NCBI GenBank assembly: GCA_963693365.1
Contig: CAVNZM010000006.1
Location: 9,675,355 to 9,739,354, forward strand
Direction of reading: 5' to 3'
Length of the DNA: 64,000 nt
Source of the DNA: Amoebidium appalachense
Taxonomy: Eukaryota; Protista; Ichthyosporea
Below are positions 4,106 through 64,000 of the stretch, piece after piece. Both the position numbers and the translations under genes were made by a program. Each line of letters opens with the position of its first letter. The stretch's first letter is position 1. The notes under the pieces are model-generated. The model made no database searches and was not told where the DNA came from. It was given only the letters and a program-made list of their open reading frames with translations.

Positions 4106-8070
<3,965 letters not shown>

Positions 8071-26620: not shown

Positions 26621-26677
<57 letters not shown>

Positions 26678-27292
26678 GCCAACCCAAGTGTGATCTCCTC
26701 ATTCGCTTCGCCTGCGTTTTCTGCTTGCGTGGACATGCTAAACTTGATGTTAGAAAGCAGTTAAGATCCTTTTCTCATCAATACACTCTCATGTGTGCTG
26801 TTTCTAACCCCCCATGCCCCCTCAAAAACAGGCTACCGTCTTTTCTTTGGTGTGATGGCCACGTCAACCTCCCTCTGCGACAGCATTACACGTATGGAGG
26901 GGTCGTACGGGTGGGTCAACAAGCGGATGGCAAATAGCGCACGCAACCCACCCACACAGCAACGGCGTGCATCGGGTATGGGCGGGGGCAGGAGTTGGGT
27001 GGAGGCAGAGGCACAGGAGCAAGGACCACAGTTGTGGCAGGGGGATGAGGTGGTGATGTGTCTGGACAGGGAGAATGGGCAGTTGGCAATGAAGGTTATC
27101 CAAAACACACGGAACACACCCACACGTTTCCCGACAATGATGACGGGGCACATGGAGAGACCCCCCATGCCGGATGTGTTCCGTGTGAGGGTGGCCAGGA
27201 ACGAAGAATATATGGTGCAGGTGGTGTTGTATGGCAACGGAGACACAATTGATTTGCTGCCTGCGGAGGATGGGGATGAGCTGATGTTTTGA
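24735..27292 (+). CDS. BTB/POZ (T1/KCTD-type) domain protein with C-terminal SPRY/B30.2-like domain, 2 exons
   Basis: Exons 24735-25473 and 26832-27292 (phase-1 intron). BTB motif IVTFNCSG...[12 protein letters not shown]...[18 protein letters not shown]-like pattern ISNHGRTV...WRMRV...FFGV...SYGW...[16 protein letters not shown]. Confidence 0.85.
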
Positions 27293-33846: not shown

Positions 33847-35956
33847 AGGGGGGGGGAGGGCGGTACCACCAGGACGGACGTCGACCACTCCCCCCCATCC
33901 CATTTCAAATTCAAAAATCCCTATTAGTGTACACAGGCTGAAAGTGCGGTGCCGGAAACTTTGCAACCCATCATCATCCATGAATGCATGAGGACCTGGT
34001 GCACGCACACCCACACTAACTGTTTAGGCCGCTCACGTGGCAGCATGCATTCATGCACGTGCCTGCGTGACGGTACACTAACATGGATGCACTGAAGGTG
34101 CATGTCAATGATCTCGGCGAATGGATATTATGCGTGGATTTTAGCCTCACAATGACAAAGTTTTCAAATGGCATGCACACTGTCAGTGTGGTTGTAACTT
34201 GAAGCTGGCTGCAGCAATTGATCCAGCCACACAGATTCACGTTCTAACATTCCATGCAATAAAAAACCGCGTACCAAACACGTTTTCCTGCAGCAGCGCC
34301 GCCCGGGACCTCGAAGTGCGCAATACTGTTGCACACACTCACATCACTAGCAAGTGGTAAAATATAATTGCCCCGCCAGCTAGACATTATACTAAAGACA
34401 GATTACAGTACAATACAAACCCCATGGGCACCTTGGGCCATGGGAAAGAAAACGCTCGCTGTGCTTCTCAAGATTTTATCGCATGCTAAGCATGACCGCA
34501 TGATCATCATGCTCTGACGTCACAAGGGCATATATAGCCGTGACTTCATGAAAACGTGTGTGGCCGGTTTGTGCATGGCCACGTGAATGAGCGGCAACAT
34601 GCGAACTCAGTTTTTGCTACTTGACCATCAATTGAGTAATGGGCTGGCGAAGATGAGTGTGGCGCCGAACAGATGTGCTTTCTTTCTTTCTATGATGCAC
34701 CTCATCACAAACGTTGGACGGACAGTGTAATATGTGACCGTGTTTGGCAGCATTTCATTTAGTCGTTTTGGGCCAAAGTAGTGACACTAAAACGAAGTCT
34801 ACTCACTCATATTACGGACCAATATTCAAAGCTTCAATATATACGTAGTAGGAAACACTCACTACCTGCGCACAGCTTTCAAAAGTTACAAACATTCTAA
34901 ACCTCCTTACCTCTCGAGGACCATCGTTGTTCCCTGGGCCTACTCCGTGCAGGCAAGTTTAAAATATAAGTTTGCCTGTTTTGACTGAACGGAAATCAAA
35001 GCCAACAACTTTTCATCAGCAAAAAAGCTGCTAGAGGTGTACTGTAATGTTGTGACGGTCGACCTTGCGGTATACTGAAAATTGATATTTGTTGTTGACA
35101 GCGTCCCCGTCGAGCCACATGCTACTTGCAGACAATGATTTAAAATTCACAGGCCGAGGTCCTTTGAGTTTTTCGACGAACCTTCTCGTTTAACGTCTTC
35201 TGTGCACACACTACCGTTTTAAGCCTGTGACGAAAACACGTTCTAACAATCCAGTTACGTTCTTGCCCCCACCTACAACGCACACAGAACCTTCAACGAT
35301 ATTCATGCAAACCGTGCATGCATCAACACAATGCTCCCCTCAGACAGTGACATGGCATGTGTATTTCAGCCCACTGAGGGCATTCGTGGGAATGGGAGCC
35401 TCACCATGATCCCGTGCACGAGCTCTTGTTGGTTGCTGGGGTGGGGATTTTTCTGGCGCATTTATCAAACGTCGTCGTTATGTTTTATCTGGAGGGATTT
35501 TGCGGGATGAATGCGCGTAAAGCGTTTACAATGTTAAGTTTTTTGACGTCCATCCTGGGTGCTATGGCCGTGGTGGGCGACCCATATGCAAGAGCATCCG
35601 AGTGCCAAGACAACTACAACGTCTACATCCCCCGTGAGTTCACGTGACATTACCAAATCTCTTTCACAAAGAGGCCTTTCAATGTGCTGCTGTTGCCAAT
35701 CTGTATAGTTTCAGAAGCGAGAAGCTTACTGTGCTTTGTATATACAGCCCCAAATGTTCTCGTGCATGTGGAGCTGGTAGACCGTGTTATGTACGCACAT
35801 GCTCTGTTTCTGTGTTTTTGGTTGGTACGACTTTTTGGGTATCAAATTGAAATGTGCGAAAGTTAGCTTATGTGTTCGTCTTTTTTGCTCCCCCATTTTT
35901 GTCACCGTGCTGAATTGATTGATTCCTGTTGGTTTCGAATGAGATGTATCACCAAC

Positions 35957-36013
<57 letters not shown>

Positions 36014-36015
36014 CC

Positions 36016-36656
36016 TGTAGACATGGTTGTGTACATTCACGTGCACACCGTGCTGTTCCCCCACAATCAGTCTACGTGCCTTTGTGTCTTCTCGCCAGAG
36101 GCTGGAATAGAGCCTCGGAAGCAGCTACCAATCGGCTGCATCACTTTTAGCTGTATTCCTTATTAGGGCAGTTGCTCTGCACCTTAAGTATGCAGTTAGG
36201 AGCGATGCAAAGAATGTGAACACTTTGCCAGCATGTATCTTAGGTGTACGGCACACACTGTGTGCCGTAGACACTTTATTGGGCACTAGACATACACATG
36301 TAGCATTGTAGTATAACAGTGAAGCTACAATATGATCACCCAGGAGAAGCTCATGCACTCATGTATATGTCATGTACTTTATTTTAAGTAGGGCCACATG
36401 CCTATTGGCTGTCGCCTTACAAAAGTATGCGAGCAGTGCTCTCCGGACCGGCGGAAACCAAGGGACTATAAAAGGCTGGTACATTCCAGACTTGGGTCAC
36501 TTGGGCGGGGCTGTGTGTCCGAGTAAACGTTACACTAGTCGTGCGGTGTCAGACTAGCTGTAGCACCCGCTTTCTTGTCTCTATACTTACGTGCTTCTCC
36601 TAGCCTGCATATGTTAATTAGGGCATAGTATTAGTGTATACACACCCTGGTTTTTA
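36016..36656 (+). repeat. Gypsy 5' LTR (641 bp)
   Basis: Matches 51742-52381 with about 14 substitutions and 1 indel counted by eye. Contains TATAAAA. Confidence 0.95.
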
Positions 36657-38305
36657 CTGGCGACCGCAGGCAGTCGAAGGTCTAGAGCGTTTGCATTAGC
36701 GTTTTTAGACTTTCGGGTGATCACAATCAAGCGTTTTTGCACATTCTTTACGGTAAACAGTCCGGAAATTTCTCCTAGTTACAACTTTGTGATTGGTTGC
36801 GATTCGCGCTGTTTTCCTGTGATTGGATACCTAAAATTTGTTGGCCACATTTGGATGTTTGCGCCATCAACTTGGTATCGGGCGTGCTACTGCGAAGTTC
36901 CGACTTTCACCGTGAACGTGGGTGGCTGCCAGCGTGGGCTGGAGCTGCTTGCACTGTGCTTTGCAAGTGCAACCGGTGGTACTGTGTGACAGTGACCACT
37001 GGGAGGGTAGGCTGCTGTGTTGGGGCCGTGGGCACGACCAGTAGGGAACCCTTTTGACAAGTTGGTGTGAGCCACTGTGGTGGCAAGAACGTGCAGCTGA
37101 GATGGCTGGCACTGGGGCTGAGAGAGGCGGGCGCCGTTCCCGCAGTCGCAGCCGTGAGCCTGGCCGGCGTTCGGCCACGTCTGAGGGCGGTCGGGAGAGT
37201 TCCCCTTATGATTCTGGTGAGTGTGCTGATGATTCCCGTGTGTGTATGGCTCCACCCATGTCTGGGCTGGGTGACGATACAGAGACACGTGGCATGCACA
37301 CACCTGGCCGTCGTGTTATGCCTGCTACTCAGTTGCGTGGGCGCAGGACTCTTCGGGGCACTAGGCCTATAAATGTTGCTGCTTTCCATGTTGAGCCTGA
37401 GTCTGATGATTCTGAGTGGGAGCAGAATGAGTCTAGCGAGAGCTCGGGGTCTGAGAGTGACGAGGGTAGTGACTCAGATTACGAACCCCAGTCACCTGTG
37501 CGCTCTCCTGGTGTGTGTGATCGTGTGGGGGATGGGGATGACGTTAGTGAGGGTGATGGTTCTGAGTCTGAGCCTGACCTGACTGTACCCCCACCTGCAC
37601 GTGACCCTAGCACACAGGAACGTTCTTTACTTGATCATGCCGCTGAGGTTATGGGGGTAGATGCTAGCAGCACGGAAGAAGTGTTGCGCCGGCAGACTGA
37701 AGCATTGCGTGCATTCGAAGCCCTGGGAGAAGCTGGGTGGGTTCCTGCTAAAAAGAGGGGTGCACGTGGTGTTGGCAGTCAGGCTGGTGGGAATAAACAG
37801 GCAGTTGGCAATCAGGGTGAGACCCAGGAGGGTGATGTTTACTTACGGAATAACTATTATGGGGTTTTGGCAGATGACCAGCGGGGATACAACTACAACC
37901 CGCCCACCCCTGGCCGTGAGTACCGTTCACCATCACCTGACCGCGATGCCGACCGTTCCCGCTCCCCTCCCTCGCGGCGCCGTTCTCCTTCTCGTCGTAG
38001 CCGGTCCCCTGAGCGTGTGCGTGAGCGCGAGCGCGGTGGTGAGCGCAGCAAGGAGCGTGGGTGTGTGCACGAGCGCACTCGCTCGCGCAGCCGCTCTCCC
38101 CAGCGCAACCGCACTCCAGAACGGGAGTCTTCTCGCGCACGCACCCGTGACCATTCACCACGGGGTCGGGACTGTACAACACCATCTAACTGTGGGTGTA
38201 ACCACCGGGGTTGTGGGCCGGTGCAGCTGTGGCCTTTTGGTTTCCCGGCCATGCCTGCAGGGGGGCCCAACACTAACATGAGTGGGCCCATGATGACCCC
38301 CTTCC

Positions 38306-41300
38306 TGTTATAATACGTAGTATTTACATATTGTAAGATCTTCTCAGTTCGTGTTATGTTTTCATTCATTTACTTAATGAAAAAGATGTGCTCCTTGTAC
38401 GTAAATTATGACATCGATCTCCAGTGTATTTGAGTACTTGTAATCGTGTTGTGTCGGCTATATTCGTGTGTTTAGATATCGATTACAGCAACTGATTATA
38501 GGTACACGAGTCTACCCAGTGAGGGAGACACGTGTACATGTTATGTGTACATGAATATCTTCGGTTATAACTGTGTTTTGCTGTTCGTGTTTTCTGTCCT
38601 GCTTTCTTTTCTTTTTCCTCTTTCTTCGTCTTTTCTTTTCTCTTTCTTTCTTCTCTTGTTTCCTTTCATTTAATTATATTTCTCTCTCACTAATATACGT
38701 TGAGTAGATTTATATTACTCGTTATGTTTTGATTGGTAGAAAAACACTTAGGTTACACTTTAGCTTGTCAGGTATGATTCATAGCTTAGTCAACCACTTT
38801 TGTTTTGTGTGTTGCCGTACTATATCCAATCAGTGGACTTAGTCAGAAAATGTCTGAGTCTTTGTAGCCGATGATAGGTTAGAAACACCACCTCTTTCCT
38901 CGTTACTCTTCACCTCTTTTCTTTCTTATAGCTGTGACCTATGGTGTGTGTTCCCGCGTCTCCGGATCTATCCGGGAAATAATCAGTTAATTATGATTGG
39001 TTATTTTAGACATAGATCTGATTTCCGACTGGTCGGAAATCATGTATGGATTTAACTTAAGGGAATTTCAGGTATTTATTAGCGATCAAAATAAATTGAG
39101 TTCAGTCGTGTCTAAACATTGATGTCTGTTGTGTACACTGCTCCGATCGTTCCGTGTTTTGTTGTTGTGTATGTCTGTGGTGTTTTCACACTGCACCACT
39201 GTGTCTCTGCTTACATCCTAAATACTTATAGAATTTAACAGGTTATGCAGCCCTTTTGCACGCTCCCTACACACATCTAGAACTCGCGCTCGTTTTTCAA
39301 TCATGGATCCAAACAAAACTGGCGTAAACAAAATCACCATGTGGAAAGGTGAAGGGAAGACTGGTCCCGATAGCAAAACTACCTATTTTCAATGGGAAAT
39401 CATTTTTCTCGGCATGATGACCGGCACTAAAGGTGTCCGACTCGTGGATGTTGTCCTTGCTGACAACTACGTCCCCCCTACCACCGTCGCGGTTGACGGT
39501 GAACCCCCCTTCTATGGCTACGGCACTACCGCGGAACTCAAAGAGGCCCGCAATTGCCTCCTGCTCCATATGATACAGAACATCGACCCTTCCGTCCTCA
39601 CCACCGTTGCCCAGTACCGTATTGGCATGGACCCTGAACGGGCCATGTGGAAATTCCGTCAACACTATCTCCAAGGCAAACCCGATCAGATCCGCATCCT
39701 TCACCGTCAGTGGGATGCCTGTGCCCTTCAGCCCGGTGAATCATTCACCACCTACCTGAGCCGTCTGCAGACCATCGTGAACCAGCTCCAGTCTCTCCAA
39801 GATGAGTCCATTCACTTCACTCGTCTAGCTGAGAAGTTCTTCAATGAACTCACCACCAGAGACGACCTCACCCCTGAGTTCAATCGTCTTATCGAAGACT
39901 ATCACTTCGGTGATAAGCTATTCCCCGACTTCGAGTCCCTCCATAACCACGTCAAGGGCATCGAGTTACGTCAAGACCTCAAGATGCAACTCCGGAACAA
40001 CCGTGCCCACCGTGCCTCCAAGTCCAGCATGGCATTAAATGCCAGTGCTCCCCCCCGTGATCTTCCTCGCCGTGACTTACGCACCCGACTTGACCGTACC
40101 TCTGGCACGGACCTCCGAACTCGTCTCTCCCGTCAGCACACCCGATCCCGTTCCCCCCACCGGCCTGTCTTCCGGTCCACGTCTCGTTCCCCCAGTCGTT
40201 CCCGTTTCTCGGGTTCCCGTCGTTCTGATTCCCCGGCTCGTTCTAACACCCCGTCCGTGAAAGAATGCTCCTACTGCCACGAGCCTGATCACACGATCAT
40301 CGATTGCCCTGAGCCGAAATGCCGTATGTCCAGACACAACCGTTCCCGTCAAGGCAGTGAGAAATCTGTCTCCTTTGCTTTCTCGGCATACAATGCTAGC
40401 TCCGTCCCCGTGTCCTCCGACCCTGCCTGGGATTCCGGGTGCAACATGACTGTTTGCCCCACCCGTGAGTTCTTCCATGACCTCACTCCCCTTCCGACAC
40501 CGACTCCCGTTGCTGCCTTCAATGGCACCCCCGTCTTGGCCACTCACACCGGCCATATCGTCATCAACACCACCACCGACCATGGCACTACCACCCTAAC
40601 CATTGAAGCCTACTACACCCCGTCTGGCCAAGCCTTCCTCATTTCAACATCCCAAGCTGCTGCCGAATACATCAAGGGTGATTTGAACGATGCCTCCACT
40701 CCGTCATTCCTCTTCGACCGACTCACCGGCCGTCATCTCGTCAACCTCCGTCTACACAACGGTCTGTATTACTTCAAGGACTACACCATTCAACCACCCA
40801 CTCGTCCTGTGGCTCTGGCTGCCACTACCAGTGTTAACCCATCCATCTGGCACCATCGTCTGGGGCACCGAGCTATGACCAGCATCAAGGACATGGTGAA
40901 ACACGACCTTGTTATTGGTCTCCCCTCCTCTGTCCTCGACTGTGATGTTCCTGATTGTCATGGCTGCATTATGGGTAAGACCACCAAGGCTCCGTTCAGG
41001 GGTGACCGTCCTCACTCCAACATCCCCGGTCATGAATGGCATTGGGATTTTTTTGAGCCTACCACAACATCGTACGGAGGTTCCAAGGTTGCTCTCGTCA
41101 CTGTCTGCCGTGCCTCTGGCCTCGTCAAGATCTACCCGATGGCCGACCGTACCACCACCCTGGATATTCTCACAGCTCACACCAACCTCGTTGCCAACCA
41201 TGCCCCCTCCAAAGTTGGTGTTTACCACTTCGACTCCGGCTCTGAGTTCACCTCCAAGGATACCCGTGCTTTTTGCCTCTCCCAGGGCATCAAGGCCAGC

Positions 41301-44300
41301 TATGCTCCGGTGGACTGCCCTCAACTGAACGGCTATGTTGAACGACGTATGCGGTTCCTCCAAGAGATTGTCCGTTGCCTCCTCCATCAAGTCCAAGATC
41401 ATTCTCTGTCTCCCAAACTGTGGGCTGAGGCCCTCCAACATGCCGCCTACATCATCAACGTCACCCCGTCCACGACTGCCAATGGTCGTACACCATTCGA
41501 GGTTTTCTACGGTGTCAAGCCCGACATCTCCGAGCTCAAAGTGTTCGGTTGCCCTGCCTACACTCACGTGCCAGCCTCTAAACGGAACAAGCTGGCCCCC
41601 ACCGTCAAACTCGGCATGTATATCGGCTATGATCTTCAATCACACTGCCACCGGATCTTCAATGCCACCACCCATCGTGTCGGCCTCTTCCGTGATGTGA
41701 TTTTCGACGAATCAGCTTATCTCCCGTCCGACATTCCATCAACCCTTCCGACCCCCGACACCACTGCTACCTCGACCACCCCACCCCCCACAGTTGACAC
41801 TGAAGATGATGTTTGTCTAGTGTACTCTGGCCCCCCTCCTGCCATCGTCGTTCCCCCCGACACCCCCCCCCACCGGCCCCCCTGCCCCCGTGCCCGTCCA
41901 GCCTGCCGACCCTCATCCTGCCCCTGGCAACGTCACACCCATCCGACCCGGCTCCCCCGACAACTTCCACTCGGCCCCGTCCAGCCCGGAGGTTGCCCCC
42001 CCTGCACTTCCGAACTTCCAAGTTCCCCCCCCACCGTCTCCACCTACCCCGGTTCCTGCACCCCGTCGTTCTGCCCGTCTCCAGGGCAAGGTTGGACTTC
42101 AAGCCACCACCACCCTGCCAGTCCCCCCCGGTCCCCCCATCAACATCGACCAACTACCCAAACTTGTCCGTCAACTCTGTTCCGGACCCAATGGTGATCA
42201 GGTCAAGTCAGCCCTGACTGCTGAGTATCAAGCCTTCATCGACAAAGACATCTTTGAACTTGTTGACCCTCCCCCTGGTGCTAACATCGTCGGCTTCAAG
42301 TGGATTGTCTCCGAGAAAACTCTCAACTCGGCTGGTGACACCAAGATCAAGGCACGTGGTGTTGCTCAAGGCTTCAGTCAGCAATACGGTGTTGACTATG
42401 AGTTGATTGAGAGCCCTGTCATCCGTCCGGCTGCTCTCCGTGCCATCCTAGCTCTGGCCGTTGTTGAAGGTCATGACATACATCAACTCGACGTGTCTAC
42501 GGCCTTTCTCAACAGCCCACTCACCGAGACCATCTACATGAAACAACCCCCGGGATTCATCACCATGGCCACACTTGGCAAGGTCTGGAGACTCAAGAAA
42601 GCCCTGTACGGCCTCAAGCAAGCCTCCAAGGCTTGGTACGACTTCCTCGACGGCATTCTTCTTGCCCATGGCCTGACCCGTACTAAGACCGACCCGTGCA
42701 TCTACCTCCGGTTCTTCCCCAACAACGATGTGGTACGGGCTGGTAACTACGTCGATGACTCCACCATCACCAACACCCGGGGTTCTACTGCTGCCAGTGA
42801 CCTGGCTGCCCACATCAGCAAGATGGCCAGCTGTCGTATGAGTCCATTTGACCGTATGCTCGGTGTTGATTTTAATCACTCTGATCCCCATCACCTCCAC
42901 ATGCACCAGAGGTCTTACATCATGGATATCATCCACGACTTTAACCTCACCGATGCCAAGTCCAAGTCTACCCCCATCCCTGCAGGCACCACCGTCTCCC
43001 TGGCTGATTGCCCCCCCCAACCGTTCACCGTGCCCTACCGTGAGTTACTCGGCCGTCTCCTCTGGGTGGCACGGTGCACACGTCCCGACATTGCCTATGC
43101 CATCGGCTTCCTTGGTCGGTTCAGCACCAACCCCGGCAAGACTCACTGGGACCTTCTCCGTCGTGTGGCCCGGTACCTGCTCGGCACCATTGACCTTGGC
43201 ATTGACTACAAGTACTCGGCCACCCAGTCCCCCATACTCGAATGCTACACGGATGCTGACTTTGCTGGTTGTGCCGACAGCAAGAAGTCTACCACCGGCT
43301 ACATTATCGTGTTTGCTGGTATGCCCGTCATCTGGTACTCCAAGCTCCAGCCCATCACGGCCACCAGCACCACTGAAGCTGAGCTGATTGCTCTCAATGC
43401 TGGCACCCAAGAAGTTGCTTGGGTCCGTGACCTCTTCAAGGAACTCGGCTGTCCCATGCTTGCTCCGACTCCGGTGTACTGTGACAACCAGTCGACCATC
43501 GCCATCGTCAACTCCACCGGCATCAAGCACCGTACCAAACACATTGCCGTCCGGTATCACAACACCAAGGACTACATTGCCAGTGGGGACGTGGTTGTCC
43601 ACTACGTTGAGTCAGCCCACAACTTAGCTGACATACTCACCAAACCCCTCCCCGGCCCGAGTCATGTCCACCATCGTGCTCGACTTTGTTTACCGGATAT
43701 TGTGGATTGACCTGACCTACTTCAAGAGTGATTTTCTCATGTGTACTACTTACTTTATCAACATCATTATATCATATGTATTGCCTTTGTGGGTATGCCC
43801 ACTTAGGGTTTATATATAAGGTTTGACCTGTACCATCACTCTACTCTATCTTTCACTGGTTTAAAACCCAGTTAATCAAACACCGCCTATACACGTTATA
43901 TATATTCGTTGTTTTTGCCCCGGTTCCTTCCCCCCCTCCCCCCCCCCCCCCCTTCCCCCCCCCCCCCCTTCCCCCCCCCCCTTCCCCCCCCCCCCCCCCC
44001 CCCCCTCCCCCCCCCTTCTCCCCCCCCCCCCCCCCCCCCCCGGGAAAAGTACACACTTTAATTTTTTTTTTTTTTCCGTTTCTGTTCTCAAGTGGGGAGA
44101 TTTCACTAGTTCAGTGGGGATATGATAACACAAACTTCAAAGTCTTAAGTGGGGATGTTATAATACGTAGTATTTACATATTGTAAGATCTTCTCAGTTC
44201 GTGTTATGTTTTCATTCATTTACTTAATGAAAAAGATGTGCTCCTTGTACGTAAATTATGACATCGATCTCCAGTGTATTTGAGTACTTGTAATCGTGTT

Positions 44301-45090
44301 GTGTCGGCTATATTCGTGTGTTTAGATATCGATTACAGCAACTGATTATAGGTACACGAGTCTACCCAGTGAGGGAGACACGTGTACATGTTATGTGTAC
44401 ATGAATATCTTCGGTTATAACTGTGTTTTGCTGTTCGTGTTTTCTGTCCTGCTTTCTTTTCTTTTTCCTCTTTCTTCGTCTTTTCTTTTCTCTTTCTTTC
44501 TTCTCTTGTTTCCTTTCATTTAATTATATTTCTCTCTCACTAATATACGTTGAGTAGATTTATATTACTCGTTATGTTTTGATTGGTAGAAAAACACTTA
44601 GGTTACACTTTAGCTTGTCAGGTATGATTCATAGCTTAGTCAACCACTTTTGTTTTGTGTGTTGCCGTACTATATCCAATCAGTGGACTTAGTCAGAAAA
44701 TGTCTGAGTCTTTGTAGCCGATGATAGGTTAGAAACACCACCTCTTTCCTCGTTACTCTTCACCTCTTTTCTTTCTTATAGCTGTGACCTATGGTGTGTG
44801 TTCCCGCGTCTCCGGATCTATCCGGGAAATAATCAGTTAATAATGATTGGTTATTTTAGACATAGATCTGATTTCCGACTGGTCGGAAATCATGTATGGA
44901 TTTAACTTAAGGGAATTTCAGGTATTTATTAGCGATCAAAATAAATTGAGTTCAGTCGTGTCTAAACATTGATGTCTGTTGTGTACACTGCTCCGATCGT
45001 TCCGTGTTTTGTTGTTGTGTATGTCTGTGGTGTTTTCACACTGCACCACTGTGTCTCTGCTTACATCCTAAATACTTATAGAATTTAACA
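38306..45090 (+). mobile_element. Ty1/Copia LTR retrotransposon, young, nested in Gypsy gag
   Basis: 935-bp LTRs at 38306-39240 and 44156-45090 (TG...CA; one mismatch seen, 38992 vs 44842). Perfect 5-bp TSD CTTCC at 38301-38305 and 45091-45095. PBS GGTTATGCAGCCC, PPT AAGTGGGGA. Domain order gag-PR-IN-RT-RH. Confidence 0.97.
39303..43710 (+). CDS. Copia Gag-Pol polyprotein (one apparent frameshift in C-runs at ~41850-41890)
   Basis: Zinc knuckle CSYCHEPDHTIIDC; protease WDSGC; WHHRLGH..CHGC; integrase D/D/E (WHWD, FDSGSEF, NGYVER); RT HQLDVSTAFLN, YGLKQA, YVDD; RNase H YTDADFAG, STTEAE, CDNQS, ADILTK. Confidence 0.93.
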
Positions 45091-46384
45091 CTTCCCCATG
45101 TTAATGTTTGGTTATCCGCAGCCCAATGTTGGGGCAGCAGGTAGCAGCACTCAGCCCACAGATAACAAGGTGGAGAAGGAGAGAAAGACCCGTTCATCTC
45201 GCAAGCGTAAGTCTTCTGGCCAACGTGCACGTACGCCTGTGTCTGAGAGGACTGCAGCGAGGATGACGGGGCGAGCCAGAGCAGCTCGGAGAGTGAAGAT
45301 GGCAACCACCCGCCAAAGAAGGTGAAGTCTGCACGTGATTTGCTCCTTGCTTTGATGCCGGAGCATGATATGGCATGGCGTAAACCGTTGGTTGTGCATC
45401 CCTCTCGGCACTATGCGCCTCTGATCACTGCAGATAAGGTGCCCCAGTTTAAGGATGATATGAGTGATACGCGCACGGTGGTTGAGTGGCTCTCTGAGCT
45501 TGCAAGCTTGTTTTTCAGAGTGGCTGGTGTGCCTGTGCATGATGCTGTGCTTTTAGTTGTCTCGTGCTTTCCTCCTGCAAGCCCCGCACGCAATTGGTTT
45601 TCCAAATTTTGCCGCACACACCCTAATGCCACGTTCGAAGCTTTTGCGCAAGAAGTGGTTAAGGAGTTCCATGGTGAGCACGTTTTGGAAAAATGGCAGG
45701 GCAAGCTGGACGAGTTGAAGCAGGGAAACATGGAGGTTTCGGAATTCTATACACAGCATGCTAGCTTGTGGGCACGAGTGTATCCACATGGCACGGATGA
45801 AGCGTGTTTGATTGATTTTTCGCACAAGTTGAACGCTGCCGCATTTAGTGATTACCAAAAATGGGCTGTGAAGCAGAGGCGTGCGAAAAAGTGTCTAACA
45901 ATCCAGGATGCACTCGTTCACTTATCGGAAAAAGAGCGCGACCGCAAAAGCACACAGAAACACACAAAGGGTACAGCCGGTGTGTTTAATGTGCAGCAGT
46001 CGGCTATGGTGGCTGTGCAGGAGCAGGCAGCAGCATTGGGCTTAGATGTGCCGTCGTTTATTGCTCTGGTGGGGTCCGGTTTGACTAAAAATCCGTGGAA
46101 AACTTCCCCACAGAAGCCCAAATACGGTGCATCGGGCAGCAGTGTCGTTTGCTACGGCTGCGGGAAGCCGGGGCATCGCAAAGGTGATGCGGAATGCCCT
46201 GCTGCTAATCGCCGCTGCAACGTTTGCAAGAAAGTAGGCCACTATTACGATTCCCGGTTGTGCAAGGGAGAGCCCAAGGGTAACGGCAAGCATCAGCAGG
46301 GCCGTGACCCAGACAAGAAGAAGCATTCACACCGCAAATAGGAACTCGCGGGGGTAGAAGGCGCGGTGCCGGGGGGTAGTTGAT

Positions 46385-49300
46385 GTGCGTAGCGCATTTT
46401 TGCACATCGGAGAGGATAGTGTACAAAGTAGTGAGGTGGTTAACGAGAATTTTGTGCACGACCCTTCTCCCCTGGCGGGAAGTTGCAAGGGAAATAAAGC
46501 AATCACTCGAAAAACTGTGTCTTTTGCCCCCACCCATATTGTGATCCCGTCCACCCTAGGTGCAACCACCCCCACAGGTGTTGGGGAGGGGGAGGGTGCA
46601 CCCGGGAAGGAGGGTGTTATGTCGGTTCAGGATTTTGTGGATTTGAAGCAGGCACGGGCAGAGGGGTTGGCGGGGCTGGCGGGGCGCGTGCATCCCACCC
46701 CCAAAGAACCATCTGTGTGCAAAGCGTCTGCTAAGGGCTCTACCTCTTGTTTGCTTGCCACTGTGAGGTTGCATGGGCACCTAGTTACGGTGGTTGTGGA
46801 TACCGGTGCTAGCCATTCATGCTTGCAATATGATTTTGCGCTGAAATTACCATTTGCTACGCGTAAGCGCATTTCGCCGGTTCACAACTTTAGTGCTGTT
46901 GGTGCTAGCGGGGACACCTTGCCATGTGCAGGCCGTGTGGGTTTGCACCTGCAGGTGCCCAACACAGAATGGAGCCATGTGCAAAAGTTTCATATTTTGC
47001 GTGGCCTCCCCTATGCAGCCTTGCTAGGCATGGATTTCTTGTTGGGTTTCGATGCACAGATTGACCTGTTGTATAGGCACTTGCTGCACAGGCCTGCCCA
47101 CGGCCAGGCAGAGTGCTATATGCCTGTTTGGTGGCTTGGGGCGGGGGTGCGGGGTGGTGAGGTGGCAACACTTATCACCACCACCGGCGTGCATCTCCCT
47201 CCTTTCAGGTCGAATGTGGCTTTGTGCTCGATGAAGGATGGGGGGGAAGGTTTGGAGGCTGGTGTGACGGGTGTTGTCGTACCCAGACCCACCTCTAACA
47301 CCGATATTCCCTTCCATCCTGCGCATAGTGTGCAATCACTCTTGTCTGTAAATGGCAGCCTCGGCTGCAAGGTACGTTAACAAATCTGACTGAAAAGCAT
47401 GTGTATTTGAAGCCTGGTACCCAGGTGGCAGCACTAGAGCCGTTGGTTGAGGGTGATATGCTCACTGTTTTGGTCGATGTGTCCGGGTCCCCAGCTGCAG
47501 AGAAGACTGGTGTGGAGGCCGTTGGGTCAGACTCACCGTCAGGCTCTGTGGGTGGGCAGGTGTTTGCTGCTGCTGCGCCGGCGGCTGCAGACAAACCTCC
47601 GACGGGTGGAGCCACAGTGGGGGGATCAGGGACCACTGGGGCTATTGGGGACAACATTATTATTGGTGAGGGTGGCCGCGTACACGCTAGTGTGCCTGCA
47701 CGTGTGTACAGGCAGGGGCGCGCGTGCACGGAGACTGTGCAGCCGTGGCTGTCAAAGAAGAAGGCCAGGGGCCGACTTGCTTTTGCAGCTAGGGCCAGGC
47801 ACCCAGGGTCGCAGGCGCCTGGTGCTCCAGCCCCTACCAGCACTAGTAAAGTTGCAGGTACCGGGCAGGGGCAGGTTTCCTCTCCTCAAAACGAACGTGT
47901 ACATTCCGATCGGAATCTCGAGTTCTCATTGGCTGAGGGTACCTTCGGGCCGGCCGCTTCATCCTCTGAGGGAGGGGTTGGGCTGTGGCATATAAAGGAG
48001 GACACTCAGGGGCAGTGTGAGGGAGTATCTGCCGGGGATACTGAAGCATCTGGCCCAGGGGAAGAGACTGATGTGCAGTGTGCAGGGGCCCGCCATGCAC
48101 GAGGTCAGTCTGGTGGTAGTCAGCCGGGCGCACCAGGAGCCAATCAGATTGCAGCAGGGGTGAGCCACGGGCCCACAGCCTCTGCATCTGATGCCGACTC
48201 CGGGGTCACCGAGGATGAATTACCACCGGGCGTGGAGGACCCAGAGACTATCCCCCTTCCTGATCTGACACCTGCGGAGAGCAAGAGATTCGCTAAGCGC
48301 ATTTGGAGGTTGATTAGCAGATGGAAGCACGTGTTTTCTGCACACGAGCATGATTATGGCAAGTCTAATGTGGCAACGCTGAAGATAGAGCTAACCACAA
48401 ATGAACCACAGTATCGGCCTCCATACAAAATTCCACACCATATCCGGGATCAAGTGTGGAAGCAACTTCAAGTATGGTTGGCTGGGGGGGTCATTGAGCC
48501 TTCCACCTCTCCCTACTCTGCACCCATGGTCCTAGTGCGTAAAAAGGATGGGAGCGTAAGAGTGTGCCTGGATTTTCGGGAAATAAATTCATGCACTGTG
48601 AGGGATGGCTACCCCCCTACCCCGCATAGACACTCCTCTCGATGTGTTGCGTGGGGCGCGCTGGTTCAGTGTGTTTGACCTCTATGGCGGCTATCACCAA
48701 ATTGAGGTGGATCCAGAAACACGGCCTAAGTTAGCTTTTACTACGCCGTGGGGTCACTATCAGTTTTTTCGCGCACCTTTTGGGGTTACGAATATGCCGT
48801 CTGTATTCAGCCGCGCCATGAATACCGTATTCGCGGGCATGCTGTGGGTTCACTTGCTTGTGTATATCGATGACCTTCTTCTGTTCACCCCGGATTTGGG
48901 AAGTCACTTAACCCACTTAGAAGAAGTTTTCAGGCGGCTGTCCGCGGCTGGTCTAAAGCTAAAGGGGTCCAAGTGCCACTTTTTCCGTAGAGCGGTGGCG
49001 TATTTAGGCCATCGTGTGGGCAGAGATGGTATTAAGGTTGATGACCGGAGAATCGCTGTGATACGCGATAAGCAGGCACCCACTTCTGTGTCCGAATTAA
49101 GGAGTGATTTGGGTCTGTTTTCGTATTACAGAAGGTTTGTTCCGAATATGAGTGACCTGGCCGAGCCGCTAACGCGCATGTTGGGTGATAGCCCACAGGA
49201 TAAGCAGTTGCGCAAAAAGATTCACGGGAATGAGCCCCCCACATCTAGTGCGCGACGGAAGCGGAATGGCACGGCCAAGGAGAAGGCTAGGCTAGCCCGT

Positions 49301-51644
49301 ACTGCTGCAGCAGATGAAAGCACAGAGGTTATTGGGCAAGCCGAATCAGAGGTTGTGGTGAGTGCACCGGGCGAGAATATTCATGCGAATATTTCAGCGA
49401 ATAATTCGCGCACACGTGCGAATACGCGCAAAAATGCCTATTTTGTGTGGGGTGAGGAGCAGCAACGCGCATTAGATGCTCTAAAGCGTGCTCTCACACA
49501 TGCCCCCGTGTTGGCTCATCCAAACTTCGACAAGCCTTTCATTGTGGACTCCGATGCTAGCAATGTGGCGCTTGGTGCGGTGCTGTCGCAGGTGGGAGAT
49601 GACGGGCAGGAGCACCCCGTTGCTTATGCCTCCCGCACGCTCAGTAAGAGCGAGCGCAATTATTCCGCCACCAAGAGAGAGGGTTTCGGCATCTATTGGG
49701 CTGTGTGCAAAGCCTTTCATCAGTATACCTACGGGAAGCCATATATTTTGCGCACAGACCATTCTTCGCTGACTTCCATATATGGTAATGGGGATGCCCC
49801 CGAGCCCATTGTTGCTTGCTGGCAGATGGTCCTGTCTGCATACACCTATGACATCCACCATCGTGCTGGGAATGACCAAAGCAATTTTGCACGGCATTTC
49901 ACGGCCTTCCAGCGCGGATTTGGTGCCCAGCGAAGATGATCCGGATCTGACTTTTCCTTCGCTGATTGGGTGTGTGCACGGAGATGACCACAGTGATTTT
50001 GTGCCAGACACCGTTGTGTTTCCTGCGCTCGTGGTGACGCGTGGGCGGGCATGTGCGGACGGTGGTGCTGAGGCACCCACCCACAAACCCGCGTCAGCGG
50101 CGCGCACGCAGAAGCGCAAGCGCACGTCAGGGGTTAAGGGTGGACCGGGGGAGGGTGTGCATGCCACTGCCAACCCCACCCCCACCCCCCTCTGGCTGAG
50201 CATATCTCTGATGCTGCACGTGATCATACCCATGGGTTGAAGGTGAATACTTCCCGCGAGTTACGCGCGCTTACTATCCCACAGTTGTCGGGTATGCCTA
50301 CTGTGGAGGAAATTAAGGCGGCGCAAAATGCAGATCCGTTTTTGTGCAGTATTCGTGATTACCTCAGCAACCCCACCGCGCCGGCACATGTGGATGGAAG
50401 TGTTGCTTTAGAGGCAAGCAGGTGCACGGTTTATAAGGGGGTGGTGTATGTGTGGACACCGGAGCAGCGTGCGACTCGTCGCCCTACCTGTGCTTGCGGC
50501 TTGCAACGATGCCCCTACAGCCGGGCATCTTGATGCCCAGCGCACGTTTCATCGCATTTGGTCTTCGTTTTGGTGGCCGGGGATGTGGTTCGATCATCCA
50601 CCCACCGCAGAGGATATCGCCAATGCTATCCACAACTATGTTTTCGCGCGACACGACTACCCGAGTTTGTGCTGTCGGATAATGGGTCGAATATTTCTGC
50701 GCAGCTGGTTAAGGATGTGTTAACCCTCCTAACTAGTCGCCAGATCCTCGCATTACCCTACTCCCCCCAGACAAATGGGCTGGTTGAACGGTTCAATTGC
50801 ACCCTTTAGAGTATTCTTGCGCAAGTGGCTACAGATAAGTTAACAGAGTGGGACACGTTTTTGCCCCAGGTGCTGTTTGCCTACCACACGGCTATGCACT
50901 CCGCACTGGGCGACAGTCCTTTCTTCCTTTTGTATGGCCGGGACCCCCGTGACCCCTTTGTGGAGAAACTGGGCCCCGAGTACAGCGGCGCCACTAAGGA
51001 GCATCGGTATGCACTCTGGGAGCGATTGACCTATGTGCGCGATGTGGTTCGTGCACGTATGGTTACCGAGCAAGATCGGCACCGCAAATCAGCCAATCAG
51101 AGGGCGCGGCCTGTTCCCAATTTGGCAGATTTGGTGCGCCAAGCTCGACAACATCCTTAACAACAAGAAGGTGGTTGATGGTGATGGTAACCAGCTGTAT
51201 GAGGCTGCTAGCCTACGGGACAAGTGGGTGGGGCCCTACCGGGTTTTGCGCAAAGTCGCGCCACTTACCTACGATATTCAGCGGGTGGGGACACAGGATG
51301 TGGAGCGTTCGCACGCTCGTTTCCTTAAACCCTATGTACCCCGCACGGATGGACCCCCTACCCCACTACCTGAGTTCCGTGTGGCAGGTGACGCTGTGAC
51401 CGCGGAAGTGGCTAAGATTACTGACCATAAATGGGAAAATGGACGCGCCCTCTACAAAGTTCGCTGGAAGGGGTTTAAGGCCACCGATGATTCGTGGGAG
51501 TCACATGCAAACTTGTCTGAGTCGGCCTCGGGTGCCTTAGCTGATTATTTGCAGCAAGTGATTCGGCCCCCCAGTGAGGAGCCAATCAAAAATCAGCGCA
51601 AGGACACCCAACAGCATGTGCGCAAACGCAGACGTAAAGGTTGA
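46385..51644 (+). pseudogene. pol: Gypsy pol (protease, RT, RNase H, partly deleted integrase, chromodomain), fragmented
   Basis: VVVDTGAS protease; RT SPYSAPMVLVRKKDGSVRVCLDFR, DLYGGYHQI, PFGVTN, YIDD; RNase H DSDAS, YASRTL; integrase SDNG, PQTNGLVERFN; GPY motif; chromodomain YKVRWKGFKATDDSWE. Multiple frameshifts and stops. Confidence 0.93.
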
Positions 51645-51741
51645 TCCCCCTTAAGGGCAGGGCATGTGGGCACTCGGTGCAGTTACCCTTCGTTGCCCCT
51701 AGGGAGGGGGTTGCCCTTCGTTACCCCTAGGGAGGGGGGAG

Positions 51742-52381
51742 TGTAGAAAAGGTTGTGTACATTCACGTGCACACCGTGCTGTTCCCCCACAATCAGTCTA
51801 CGTGCCTTTGTGTCTTATCGCCAGAGGCTGGAATAGAGCTTCGGAAGCAGCTACCAATCGGCTGCATCACTTTTAGCTGTATTCCTTATTAGGGCAGTTG
51901 CTCTGCACCTTAAGTATGCAGTTAGGAGCGATGCAAAGAATGTGAACACTTTGCCAGCATGTATCTTAGGTGTTCGGCACACACTGTGTGCCGTAGACAC
52001 TTTATTGGGCACTAGACATACACATGTAGCACTATAGTATAACGTGAAGCTATATTATGATCACCCAGGAGAAGCTCATGCACTCATGTATATGTCATGT
52101 ACTTTATTTTAAGTAGGGCCACATGCCTATTGGCTGTCGCCTTACAAAAGTATGCGAGCAGTGCTCTCCGGACCGGCAGAAACCAAGGGATTATAAAAGG
52201 CTGGTACATTCCAGACTTGGGTCACTTGGGCGGGACTGTGTGTCCGAGTAAACGTTACACTAGTCGTGCGGTGTCAGACTAGCTGTAGCACCCGCTTTCT
52301 TGTCTCTATACTTACGTGCTTCTCCTAGCCTGCATATGTTAACTAGGGCATAGTATTAGTGTATACACACCCTGGTTTTCA
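51742..52381 (+). repeat. Gypsy 3' LTR (640 bp)
   Basis: Direct repeat of 36016-36656, preceded by a polypurine tract. Confidence 0.95.
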
Positions 52382-53351
52382 CCCCCCCGCCCAAAAATTA
52401 AAATAAAAAAAATAATAAAAAAGACCCCCCCCCACCCACCCACCCACCCACACACACACACACTGTTTCAGGACTGTACGACCGCCCTCGCGAAAAATCG
52501 CCAATAACTCATTACTTCATGATAATGAACCTGTTCACAGACTGAGCATTTGTTGCACAAACTCACAATCCCTGTTCCACGACTGCACCCACAGAGATCT
52601 ATAAAATGCTCACAACCGTCATCAGCCACATCTTCTTCTATGACACCGTCACCGTTGCCAGCCACACTTTTGCACAAAACGCACTGGCTCGTACGCAGGC
52701 GGCCACTGCTTTACAGACTGACCATCCTCAGCATGGCGTTTGTGTTTTTCGTTGTGATTCCCACTGCTCTCGTGGGGGGTTATCTTTACATGATGCGTGA
52801 GGCCACCACAACGCAAGCCCTGTCGGTCAATGTGACGTCAATGGTGATGTCATTTATTTCGTTTTTTGCTACATTCCTGGCCTGTCTGTGGTTGATCTAT
52901 GGGTTTAGCTCGGCCGCAAGCTCAAAACATGTAAGAGCCCCCCCCCCTCCCCCCCCCCCCCCTCTCTCTCCCCCCCCCCCCCCCTCCCTCTCCCCCCCCC
53001 CTCCCCCCCTCCCCCTGCGCGTGCGTCCACATCCCCTGAGTAGTTCCCAACGTCTGTTTGAGCCACGAAACAGAAATGATGGTGAAGGACTAGTCAACCA
53101 TGATGCACCACAGTGGCCTAATACTATGAAAAATTAACTCATTCCAGTGGATTGCACCGACATCGAGCTTCACAGTTGATTTCATATGATCTTTAAACCT
53201 CCTTTCCCTTCCTCCCCCCCATCTCCCCACCCAAATCCCTATGCATCCCTATTCCCCCCTCACTCCCGCTTTCTCCCTCTCCAGTCCAATACTCATCTCC
53301 CGCCTTCAACCTCCCCCCCCCCCCTCCCCCCCGAAAACACATACACACACA

Positions 53352-53440
<89 letters not shown>

Positions 53441-53980
53441 CCACAGATACACAATAATTTCAAGACCTATTCTGACCCCCCCCCCTCCCCCCCCCCCCTT
53501 CCCAATTCTCCGCTCTTCCCCCTTCCCCCCCCTCCCCACACCCCCCCAATTATATAAAAATAAAAATAAAAATGAAACTAAAAACAAAAACAGATGAGCT
53601 CAGCAAGGGTCTATCTCTCTGCCAACATTTCGGCCCCAATCGTGCAACGTCCGGCCAGAGGCAAACAACAAGCCCATGACCCGGCAAGCTACCATCACCC
53701 ATAAGATGCAGCAGGGGGTTGCAAGGAGTGTGCTGCAATTTCTGACGTTCCTGGTCGTCACCAACATCGGCGTATTTGCACTTCTGGTCTACTACTCTGG
53801 GGTCTATCTCTACATGGCAGAGTATGGGGGGAAATATCATACTCTACCGGGTACGTGATGCCCCACTCAGTTTCACTTTGAGCTTCCTTCTGTATTTTCT
53901 GTTTTTTTTTTTTTTTCTTGCCACATGCAGGTCACAGAGAAAGGACTCCCCCTCCCCCCCCCACATTCCCCGCCCCCATT

Positions 53981-54011
<31 letters not shown>

Positions 54012-54403
54012 CGCCCCATGGCCCCCCAAAAAGAGTAAAATGAAAAATAGAAAATAAATACCGATAACTTGAATAAAAAGTACTCGAGCTCAAATAAACA
54101 TCAACACCGGTTACCTAACGGAGCTACTTGCAGAACTCCACCGGACTATTTGGCTACAGCTCACACGACTCCATCTACGTGCTCCAATCACTCATGTACA
54201 TAACATTCTCCTGCGGCTGTCTGTTCTACCGATACCCCTGGCCCAGAGGGGAGATTTTTGTACCGGCCAGCTTTTACAGCCCCAACCAAAACGACACCGT
54301 GGTGGGTGAGGGCCACTTTGGGGGGGGTCACGAAGGGCACCCTCAGGAATGATGGAAAGAAGGTCGAAGTGGCTACAAAGACGGTACCCCCTCCCTCCCC
54401 TCC

Positions 54404-54434
<31 letters not shown>

Positions 54435-55919
54435 AAAAAAAAAAAAACATCACATTTTATATCACTTAATACCCCCCACCCCCCCCCCCCCTCCCCCCCC
54501 CCTCCCCCCTCTCTTCCCCCAGTGCCCCTTCCCCTCAGCCCATTGATCGGTATATCTATATTTGTTTCGGTAACCTCTGGAGTCAAGTCCCGCTACCCAC
54601 CTTCCCCCCCCCCCCCCCCCCCCCGGGGGGGGGGGGGGGGGGGGGAAGGTGTCCTTTGTGCTTGACCAGTATCAGGGTATAGGAGGTGAACTTCGTTATT
54701 ACACACCTTTAGCAAAATGCAATGAGTGCAAAGAGAAACAACGGTTAATCCGCGTTGAATCCCCCTCACTGCCTCTACGAAACACATTACACGTTCTTGT
54801 ATGCAAACCACATAAAAATCCGTCTCTCCTCCCCCTCTTTCTCACACGATTCTATAAACCCCACAGCTGAAAAACGGCAACTTGTGGCGTGAGGGTGAGA
54901 GAGGCCTATTGGGGGAGGCCGAGATGCAGCGTCTGGTCCATCACCTCTTCGTGCTCCAGTAACCCCTCCCCCTCCCTCCCCCCCTCCCCCCCCCCTCCCC
55001 CCCACAAAAAAAAAAAAAAAGCATCCCCCCCCCCCCCCCCCCGACTCTCTTCTTCAAAACCATTCCCCCATCTCCTCACAAAAAACACCCCAGCTCTGCG
55101 CACATGCAACCCCTTGCCTTCAACCCCTCCCCTCCTCCCCCCCCCCCCCCTCCCCCGGCCCGCCCGCCCTCCCCTCTTCTTCACCCTCCCTCCTCCGCTT
55201 GCTGCCTTGCCCTCTCATAGTATCAACCTCCCTCCCTTAGATCCGCCCCCCTCCGATACCCTCCCCACTTCCCCTGGGTCACAATCGTCAAATTTCTGCC
55301 TTGCCAACACACACTTACACCCCCCCTCCCTTCTCCCCAAAAAGTTTCTTAATCAATCTTTCATAGTTGCATGGTTCCTTTCTTATTGGCAACATGGGGG
55401 GCATCCAATTGATTATTGCCGCAAATTATTTGTTGCGGTTGTTGTTACAAGTAAAGCTGGGAAGCATGGAGAAAAGCATCAACGTTGCACCCATGAGTGG
55501 CTTGCCACGATTCTTCAGCCTTAGCCGCCCCCCTCCCCCCCTCCCCCCCCCCCTCCCCCCCCCCCCCCCCCTCCCCCCCCCCCCCCCAAAAAAAAAAAAA
55601 AAAAAAAAGAGAAGAAACCCCCCCCCCCCCCCCCCCCCCCCCCCTTTCCCATCCGCCCACCGTTGCCCCACACTCACATATGCTTGCTCCCAACACCCCC
55701 ATCTCAAACTCGAAAGCACACGGTATTTCTGTCTTAAACTAATTTTGTGTTGCAACGAGGTGCCTCGGGGTGTCGTGTGTTGGGGGCCAACTGTGCATGT
55801 TCACGGAGTTGACGAGGGAGGGCTCCCTTTGAGATGCACTGCTGCAGAGGAAACAGAAGAACTCGGGTTATGCCCCCCTGGGCCTGTATCAGAAACTGTG
55901 CCTGGCATGGCAGGTGTGT

Positions 55920-55950
<31 letters not shown>

Positions 55951-56024
55951 GGGGAGTGGGGGAAGGGGAGGGGGAGGGGGGTAGGTGTGGTTGGGTGTGG
56001 TTGGGTGTGGGTGAGGAAGCGGGG

Positions 56025-56109
<85 letters not shown>

Positions 56110-56346
56110 CGCGCGTGCGCGCGCAAGAAAGGTGTGTTTCTAAGTGCAGAGAAGGTTTGACATTGGCTTTCGGTTATAATCTTCACCATAGCAGTGCAGG
56201 TCCAACACATTATTTAGTGTGGTTTGCCCACCCGGGGGGGGAGGGTGAAGAGCACCTGTTGAATGCAAACGTCCTGAATAATCAAGTTCGCGTCGTTTGA
56301 CACTCCCTCCCTCCCCCCACCCCCCACCCCCCACCCACCCACCCAT

Positions 56347-56414
<68 letters not shown>

Positions 56415-57196
56415 CTGCCATTCCACACAGGTGTCTGTGAGCATGTCTGCGCTTGTGTCCAAGCACACCGTGCACCGTGATCTTGCCCCTCGCAACGTCT
56501 TTGTGGGTGCCTTGCCTGCCACTGACCCCCAGCTGGCATTGGTAAGCCCCCTGATTGGTTGGCTCCCTATTACCATTTTTGATTCCTGCTACCGCTAGCG
56601 ACCATGGCTTATTCCTCCCCCTCCCCCCCCCCCCCCCCCCCCCCTTCTCCCCTGTTCCTCCCCTTCTCCCCCCCCCTCCCCCCCAGTTCCCCTTCCCGCC
56701 CCTCTATCCACCTCTTCCTCTCTCACCCGTGCTCTGCTCCCTGAGAACTCCAACCTCCCCCTCCATTCCCTCCCCCCCTCCCCGTCCTCTTCCTCTCTTC
56801 CAGAGTGATATTATGTCCTTGTTTGGACGTCCCTGTCCTTTCCTTCATTCGTCTTTACCTCTCCTGCAGGTGTCCGGCTTCTCCCCCTTACTCCCACCCA
56901 ATGTGACGACAAATAAGAGCCCTTCCGATCGGAGCCCAGAGGTGTTCATTGCAAAAGTTGCCGATTTTAGACTGGCACGGCACATGAACACAAGCACAAA
57001 CTTATACCTGGATACCGAGAGCGAAAGGCTGCCTGCCCGGCGTGCACCAGAGACATTTCGCACACATGTATTATCGGAGAAGTCGGACGTTTTCGACTTT
57101 GGGTTTCTTCTATGGGACCTACTCACCGACTTGGGCAATCCGTTCCCTCAGTGCAACACAACACACACCATGGTCCAGTCCTTGGTGGATGGTAAG

Positions 57197-57236
<40 letters not shown>

Positions 57237-58470
57237 CAACACTATCACCACCGCCACCGCCACCGCTACCCACCCACCCACCCCGCACCCGTTCGTTTCC
57301 CCCGAGTTTTCCCTTTTCGTCATTTGCAATTCCCTTCGCCTCACACTCTTTTTCAAAGCTTGGAGCAAAGTTAGTTTTTTTTTTTTTTTTTTTTTTTTTT
57401 TTGTGGGTGCGGGGGGGGGGGGGGGGGGGGGGGGGGGGGCTTTGTGTTTGTTAGCTCACGGCCGTAAATCAACTTGTTCTGGCCCAGCTGTGTGGTTTTG
57501 AAAGGGGATAGGCGGAAAGCGGAAGCAGGGGGGGGGGGGGGGGAGAGAGAGAGAGAGAGAGGGGGAGGGGGGGGGGGGGGGTGCTTGGACAACAGAATCT
57601 TGAAAGGTCTGGCAGCCTCACGGCCAATGCATGGTACTTATGATTCTCCGGTCGAAATCATAGCCATAGATGCACATAACCACATGTCCCTCCCAACTCC
57701 ACAGGATACCGCCCAGAGCGCCCACCTACCCTCCCACTGCAGAATGAGGGCGTATGGGAGCTGATCACACAGTGCTGGTCCCCCAGTGACCATCTACGAC
57801 AAACATTTTCGGATATATCCCCGGTATTGGAACGGGAAATCCTCTCGTTGCATGAGTTGAATCGGTTGGATCGAAATAATGCCGAAACATGGGTCGAGTT
57901 TCATTCAACTGTTGCTGTGCGCTCCACAATGTCGCTGGACATCCCAGAGTACGTAGAGGTGGGCTTGAAGAATGATATCTTGGATTTCGGCCCAAATACA
58001 CGTGTGCATGTGATGGATACAACACAAGGATACGAGAGCGCAGACATCGTGCAAGAAAATACGTCGTACGATTACGACGATGCAGACGCACCAAATTCCG
58101 AATCGAACATGAATCGCACATCGACGCTAGACTCCAGCAAAGAGACCCAGGTGGATGTCGAAACAATTACAGACGCTTACCCTGAAAGTGTTCAATTGTG
58201 CGGCAAAGCACCAAAATCGGCTCAAAACCAGCCAATGTTCTCAAGCCGCTATGAAAATATGAACCCCGGCCTAAACACAATTCAGCTCTGCGATGTGGTT
58301 GAAGATTCAGTTCAGGGAAGCCGTGAACATACAGACAGATTCATATGACTACATGTACTACGTCTAAGTGGTCTAGGGGATTGTTACATCGACCATAACA
58401 TTAAGGTATGATGCACACCGACTAGATGCATGTGTATAAAATACCTACTTTGGTGTTGCTTTGATTCCCC

Positions 58471-62183: not shown

Positions 62184-62217
<34 letters not shown>

Positions 62218-63831: not shown

Positions 63832-64000
63832 GTAGGTGTGCTGGTGCACGTGCGTGGGTGTACTCGTAATGGGATGTTTGTTCTGTCCATGTCTTTGTTT
63901 GCCTGTCTGCCCGTGTGTGTGTGTGTGAGCAGTTGTCCAAGAGCATGTATGTTGGAACAAGAGCCACATAATCGCGGGCATTTTATGGTTTGGACCGCCA

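Follow-up and report, generated by a model that had tools for sequence, protein, structure and literature searches.

The 64,000-nucleotide (nt) stretch of the Amoebidium appalachense genome analysed here (assembly GCA_963693365.1, contig CAVNZM010000006.1, positions 9,675,355 to 9,739,354, forward strand) is referred to below as the window, and all positions follow its own numbering. At 35352-58348 on the + strand it holds a single gene in which a multi-pass membrane domain is joined to a kinase of the tyrosine type, with the junction inside one exon. The gene is crossed by frame and splice lesions, and its first intron has taken up a large retroelement insertion. A first-pass annotation of the window had described the locus as a seven-transmembrane, G-protein-coupled receptor (GPCR)-like protein joined directly to a tyrosine kinase, and had proposed that it represents a new class of receptor.

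Gene model and intron insertion

Three-frame translation gave a 10-exon model totalling 2,517 coding nt, in which 7/9 introns have a canonical GT donor and a YAG acceptor. All seven hydrophobic segments and the kinase motifs quoted in the first-pass annotation were recovered on the + strand where it had placed them. Exon 1 (35352-35633) encodes a short N-terminus and the first two candidate transmembrane (TM) segments, TM1 (35423-35479) and TM2 (35522-35578). Exon 2 (52472-52540) joins it in phase 1 and begins a marginal TM3, which is completed in exon 3 (52595-52930) ahead of TM4 (52718-52774) and TM5 (52841-52897), while exon 4 (53594-53850) contributes a long basic loop and TM6 (53730-53786). 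Exon 5 (54134-54383) is the junction exon, comprising a marginal TM7 (54173-54229), a linker, the Gly-rich loop GEGHFG (54305-54322) and the VAxK lysine (54369-54380). TM7 and the Gly-rich loop are thus read in one frame of one exon, 25 codons apart, and the fusion is genuine, as had been claimed.

The rest of the kinase is spread over five further exons. Exon 6 (54867-54958) was assigned to the alphaC region by position and motif, having no Pfam match on its own, and exon 7 (55760-55913) covers the hinge region. The catalytic loop, HRDLAPRN (56473-56496), lies in exon 8 (56431-56541), and exon 9 (56870-57191) carries an insert, DFR at the DFG position (56963-56971), the motif LPARRAPE (57029-57052), the P+1 loop and a counterpart of the SDVW motif. 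Exon 10 (57705-58348), open over 213 codons, holds the end of the kinase C-lobe (CWSP at 57773) and a tail of ~170 amino acids with six tyrosines, the stop codon ending at 58348. Another candidate exon, 55367-55450, was discarded, since 54867-54958 and 55760-55913 connect directly in phase and PF07714 is matched by the second of these. No second copy of the gene was found within the 64-kb window.

The 16-kb insertion that the first-pass annotation saw in intron 1 is real. It consists of a Ty3/gypsy-type long terminal repeat (LTR) retrotransposon with a chromodomain (36016-52379, +), whose coding region is broken, and of a Ty1/copia-type element (38306-45090, +) nested within it, 5' of gag. The two exons flanking this intron stand 16.8 kb apart and no transcript or homologue connects them, so that exon 1, with TM1 and TM2, might derive from another gene or be a relic, leaving a kinase gene with only four or five helices. 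We consider this highly improbable: once the LTR element is removed, intron 1 measures 474 nt, is bounded by GT-AG and leaves exons 1 and 2 in matching phase, with no other gene between them. Its length is then comparable to that of the gene's other introns (283-801 nt), apart from the donorless intron 2 (54 nt).

Predicted membrane domain

Hydropathy was read from a read-through translation with an X at each break. The Kyte-Doolittle 19-mer peaks for TM1 to TM7 are 2.24, 1.86, 1.32, 2.49, 2.24, 2.19 and 1.45, respectively. All seven segments are present, but the count of seven helices was not confirmed: only 5/7 reach 1.6, TM3 and TM7 being marginal. The five peaks fall within 374 codons, whereas six-frame controls gave 1.4-2.3 per 1000 codons, a contrast that is inflated by the frames of the read-through having been picked by eye. 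A further hydrophobic peak at model residues 427-445 sits in the kinase and was excluded from the TM count.

The predicted inner loops contain 2, 4 and 8 lysine or arginine residues (K/R), whereas the N-terminus and two of the predicted outer loops have one K/R each plus an N-glycosylation sequon; the N-terminal sequon is contingent on which start codon is correct. This composition mostly fits a layout of seven predicted helices with the N-terminus outside and the C-terminus inside. The pattern is not clean, given that the loop after TM2 carries 4 K/R together with 5 aspartate or glutamate residues and that a sequon also occurs in the long, third predicted inner loop. None of six pieces of the TM region matched a 7TM Pfam family, at a sensitivity kept low by the length (58-90 amino acids) and decay of the pieces, and two TM-region pieces had no match in the PDB. 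The label 'GPCR-like' was accordingly not confirmed. Overall, the prediction of a multi-pass membrane domain is well supported, and a bundle of seven helices is plausible.

Kinase domain

Exon 9 matched the tyrosine kinase profile PF07714 with 46.6 bits (E = 3.4e-12), passing the cut-off, and the general kinase profile PF00069 with 24.4 bits (E = 2.2e-5), under the cut-off. Four kinase exons are collinear with PF07714 positions 67-108, 114-136, 140-214 and 222-256, two of these matches being weak (E = 0.13 and 0.062). Three exons were searched against the PDB, yielding 603, 160 and 505 matches; among the best 60 of each, 180/180 are tyrosine kinases, including FGFR, MET, EGFR, TRK, FAK, JAK3, RET and others, the strongest for the exon 9 query scoring 42 bits. 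HRDLAxRN is a tyrosine-kinase signature, and it is visible in the alignment of EGFR to exon 8. Judged by profile and nearest neighbours, the predicted domain is of the tyrosine type, nearer to tyrosine kinases than to tyrosine kinase-like (TKL) or Ser/Thr kinases, which bears out the original classification.

The catalytic motifs are only partly kept. The VAxK lysine and HRD are present, whereas DFG reads DFR, the P+1 tryptophan is absent and the SDVW motif is degenerate; VAxK, HRD, DFG and P+1 do not occur intact in one open frame, as they would in an active kinase. The six tyrosines of the tail include the motifs YVEV, YESA, YDYD and YENM, the last of which is consistent with both the YxN and the YxxM patterns of SH2 docking.

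Lesions and decay

Eight frame or splice lesions are present in the gene, or ~3 per kb. Exon 1 is broken between the start and TM1: either the TM frame meets a TGA (35375-35377) or, if read from the ATG at 35352, the sequence is frameshifted. Intron 2 has lost its GT donor, which reads AC, and its retention would bring in a TGA at 52543-52545. Frameshifts occur in exon 3 (~52678), in exon 4 (~53675-53678) and in the Gly loop of exon 5 (G8 run, 54320-54327), and exons 4 and 5 are mismatched in phase. Finally, the acceptor of intron 6, before exon 7, reads GAG, and exon 7 contains an in-frame TGA (55830-55832). The first-pass annotation had mentioned lesions, rightly, but understated them, the damage to the catalytic motifs coming on top of these eight. 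As read, the locus would be unable to encode a working receptor.

These lesions might instead be assembly errors or the product of mis-modelled splicing, the gene being alive and coding for a multi-pass pseudokinase or a truncated receptor. Three frame breaks do coincide with A4, G6 and G8 runs or lie close to them; the very young copia element likewise breaks at a C run, so that some of the breaks may be assembly errors. The preponderance of canonical introns and the long open last exon would also suit a live gene. Nonetheless, 5/8 lesions lie away from homopolymer runs, and homopolymer errors do not account for the TGA at 55830, the lost donor or the GAG acceptor. As a control, the adenosine deaminase (ADA) gene in the same window (4106-8070, +) is intact, its seven exons being GT-AG and in frame at 6/6 junctions with no stop, and its spliced 435-amino-acid protein is identical at 435/435 positions to the transcript-derived EP00123_Amoebidium_parasiticum_P013095 in EukProt.

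Short reads add to this picture for exon 1, the region that the read-contig check covered; exons 2-10 lie outside it. The exon-1 region is letter-identical in short-read contigs of DNA runs X1 and X3, although the window may itself derive from either run or from both. Run X8 shows 13 substitutions relative to the window there, and an insertion in the intron, but no exon indel, and the exon-1 break is therefore common to X8, persisting in contigs of all three runs. Within the TM1-TM2 frame, 4/5 of the X8 differences alter the amino acid, which fits lost selection in what is a small sample; five substitutions in exon 1 are too few as proof of neutral evolution. A further run, possibly of RNA, gave no sequence over exon 1, a blank that says nothing about expression. 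Taking both sides together, we regard a live gene as quite improbable.

The coding region of the gypsy element has roughly 1 break per kb. The greater density of lesions in the kinase gene weakly suggests that its decay started before the retrotransposon was inserted.

Relation to published receptor-kinase fusions

The layout found here has been published before in Amoebidium. IchRTK19 is a family of Amoebidium parasiticum receptor tyrosine kinases (RTKs) with six putative TM segments, a tyrosine kinase domain and expressed transcripts, represented by Apa_RS32128.0.1, RS32970.0.3, RS32970.0.7 and RS31361.0.2 (Suga et al., PMC4342544). The IchRTK19 kinases are listed there in the ichthyosporean RTK cluster (Fig. 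S8, PMC4342544). In a literature search with most subscription journals outside its reach, the name 'IchRTK' was found in Suga et al. (PMC4342544) only, and no paper was found that calls IchRTK19 a 7TM or GPCR protein. Like IchRTK19, the present gene belongs to an Amoebidium genome, a host genus to which the 435/435 identity of the ADA protein also points, and combines several TM segments with a metazoan-type tyrosine kinase domain. Unlike the expressed IchRTK19 proteins with their six putative segments, it is broken, and only five of its helices are clear, two more being marginal, the comparison being one of host and layout. We therefore interpret the locus, with a probability of about 0.68, as a broken Amoebidium gene that combines a membrane domain of six or seven predicted helices with a tyrosine-type kinase and is likely an IchRTK19 pseudogene, membership in the family being proposed because host genus and layout are the same.

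Several observations weigh against this interpretation. In addition to the mixed loops, the breaks near homopolymer runs, the confinement of the read check to exon 1 and the small number of substitutions described above, the assignment to IchRTK19 is drawn from host and layout rather than from sequence. The searches for relatives were also blank: with the kinase exon, 0/88 candidates scored, and with the junction exon, 0/4 candidates were found at E <= 10. The TM4-5 exon had a single match among 1.84 billion representatives, a tandem-repeat open reading frame (ORF; P0001) with 22% identity that we attribute to composition bias. No intact relative with both parts in a single ORF, which the first-pass annotation had proposed to look for, emerged from these protein-collection searches with the kinase, junction and TM4-5 exons. 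Since the searched set included the EukProt Amoebidium proteins, a close intact paralogue might somewhat have been expected. The queries, however, were short, decayed exons and the searches correspondingly insensitive, which makes such blanks weak evidence. A scan of metagenomes gave one locus (L001), which was dropped as a match lying off-frame within a bacterial efflux operon of 68% GC content, and the ESM Atlas returned for TM4-5 only unnamed bacterial clusters scoring under 0.9.

The missing intact relative would also be accounted for if the locus were a pseudogene of a separate Amoebidium family of multi-pass tyrosine kinases, arising from a second independent fusion in the genus. Seven candidate helices are modelled here, against six given for IchRTK19, and a rapid turnover of RTK architectures has been reported for ichthyosporeans (PMC4342544). 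Even so, a separate family seems unlikely to us: both the host and this rare layout are shared with IchRTK19, two of the helices are so weak that a predictor could count six, and the insensitivity of the queries is illustrated by the best PDB tyrosine kinase reaching only 42 bits.

Whichever family is concerned, the proposal of a new receptor class does not hold, the architecture being catalogued already both as IchRTK19 (PMC4342544) and as GPCR-TKs (PMC12716839). GPCR-TKs are 7TM-tyrosine kinase fusions described from sponges and, as a set of 11 proteins, from choanoflagellates (Garcia De Las Bayonas and King, PMC12716839 / bioRxiv 10.1101/2025.04.15.649019). According to that study, their 7TM parts are heterogeneous and were fused repeatedly, none has been functionally characterised, and none was recovered from other holozoans (PMC12716839). 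Its taxon table lists six ichthyosporean proteomes, Amoebidium not among them, although EukProt was searched by BLAST (PMC12716839). The present gene resembles the choanoflagellate and sponge GPCR-TKs, as they are described there, in that one gene carries both the TM domain and, C-terminal to it, the tyrosine kinase; it differs from these 7TM proteins in that two of its seven candidate helices fall below 1.6 and its seven-helix fold is predicted only. We can envisage, tentatively and at somewhat less than even odds, that IchRTK19 and the present locus are true seven-helix receptors with a GPCR fold, the weak third helix having been overlooked originally. GPCR-TKs would then reach the ichthyosporeans, and by a fusion independent of those in choanoflagellates and sponges, because the IchRTK19 kinases are listed within the ichthyosporean RTK cluster.

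GPCR-PIPKs, such as Dictyostelium RpkA and its oomycete counterparts, are 7TM proteins fused to a cytoplasmic lipid kinase; they share with the present gene a multi-pass domain joined to a cytoplasmic enzyme and differ from it in the enzyme being a lipid kinase. Protein kinases are the fused enzymes in the GPCR-type transmembrane kinases (GPCR-TMKs) of oomycetes, ciliates and amoebae, whose kinases are given as TKL or protist clade I (PMC10463195), and in the acanthoecid GPCR-TKL/K, also multi-pass receptor-kinase fusions (PMC12716839). The former source further places GPCR-TMKs of a few metazoans within the tyrosine kinase clade (PMC10463195). All of these join a multi-pass receptor to a protein kinase, as does the present gene. 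Unlike the TKL or other non-tyrosine kinases that these sources describe in oomycetes, ciliates, amoebae and acanthoecids, its kinase is of the tyrosine type by its catalytic loop and by all of the best-60 PDB matches.

Possible function of the ancestral gene

In our analysis, the ancestral gene would have worked like a GPCR-TK, the present copy being a broken member of a layout already in print. The ancestral protein would have measured ~840 amino acids, in which a short N-terminus on the outer side led into the helix bundle, followed by a kinase held close beneath the membrane and by the six-tyrosine tail. The bundle, with its short outer loops, might have sensed a cue, and the kinase, 25 residues under the last helix, would then have been activated, probably by clustering or a change of shape. 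It could have phosphorylated itself, both in the activation loop and at the tyrosines of the tail (YVEV, YESA, YDYD, YENM), and the resulting phosphotyrosines may have served as docking sites for SH2 proteins. Through such phosphorylation and docking, the ancestral gene may have signalled like an RTK with an intramembrane sensor, needing no G protein. Amoebidium is listed with 55 SH2 domains (Table 1, PMC4342544). The present locus would yield no working protein.

As it stands, the locus is of little significance, being probably a dead copy of a layout published for Amoebidium and other holozoans. It might rather serve as a pointer to the expressed IchRTK19 proteins, which may carry a seventh helix. 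If they do, the confinement of GPCR-TKs to choanoflagellates and sponges would need revising, and the 7TM-kinase fusion would have recurred in an early-branching holozoan line. As no GPCR-TK has been functionally characterised (PMC12716839), intact Amoebidium paralogues could be used to tell signalling through the protein's own kinase from signalling through G proteins, or a combination of both.

Retroelements and neighbouring genes

The gypsy element contains gag, protease, reverse transcriptase, RNase H and chromodomain matches by Pfam, and 14 differences in 639 positions separate its LTRs (36016-36654 and 51742-52379). It was inserted in a poly-C tract. The copia element is flanked by a CTTCC target-site duplication, a single difference in 935 positions separates its LTRs, and it is near-intact, the sole frame break lying near a C run at ~41863-41870. 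Judging by these sequences, it is much the younger of the two. The 5' region of the gypsy element also holds an acidic, RS-rich open frame of 422 codons (37045-38313 and 45091-45246, +), split by the copia insertion, for which no Pfam match was found.

After the A. parasiticum protein, the next-best match of the ADA protein is EP00124_Ichthyophonus_hoferi_P000977 (79% identity). Beyond these two ichthyosporeans, the matches with taxon names are bacterial (Myxococcota, Elusimicrobiota, Aminicenantes), the top ones being ~52-56% identical over the full length, which hints that the ichthyosporean ADA gene may be of bacterial origin. At 24726-27295 (+) lies a gene whose long first exon weakly matches BTB/POZ (PF02214, E = 0.025), more open exons following downstream. 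A repeat of 173-280 nt occurs in three copies (18178-18350, 20729-21008 and 21181-21460) that are 94-99% alike. At the far end, 60981-64000 (+) contains the start of a gene for an RSN1/CSC1-OSCA-like membrane protein (PF13967, E = 4e-7); the exon ahead of this start is rich in N-glycosylation sequons, and an intron of the gene holds a tandem array of a 36-nt unit (62597-62850), the copies being ~99% alike.

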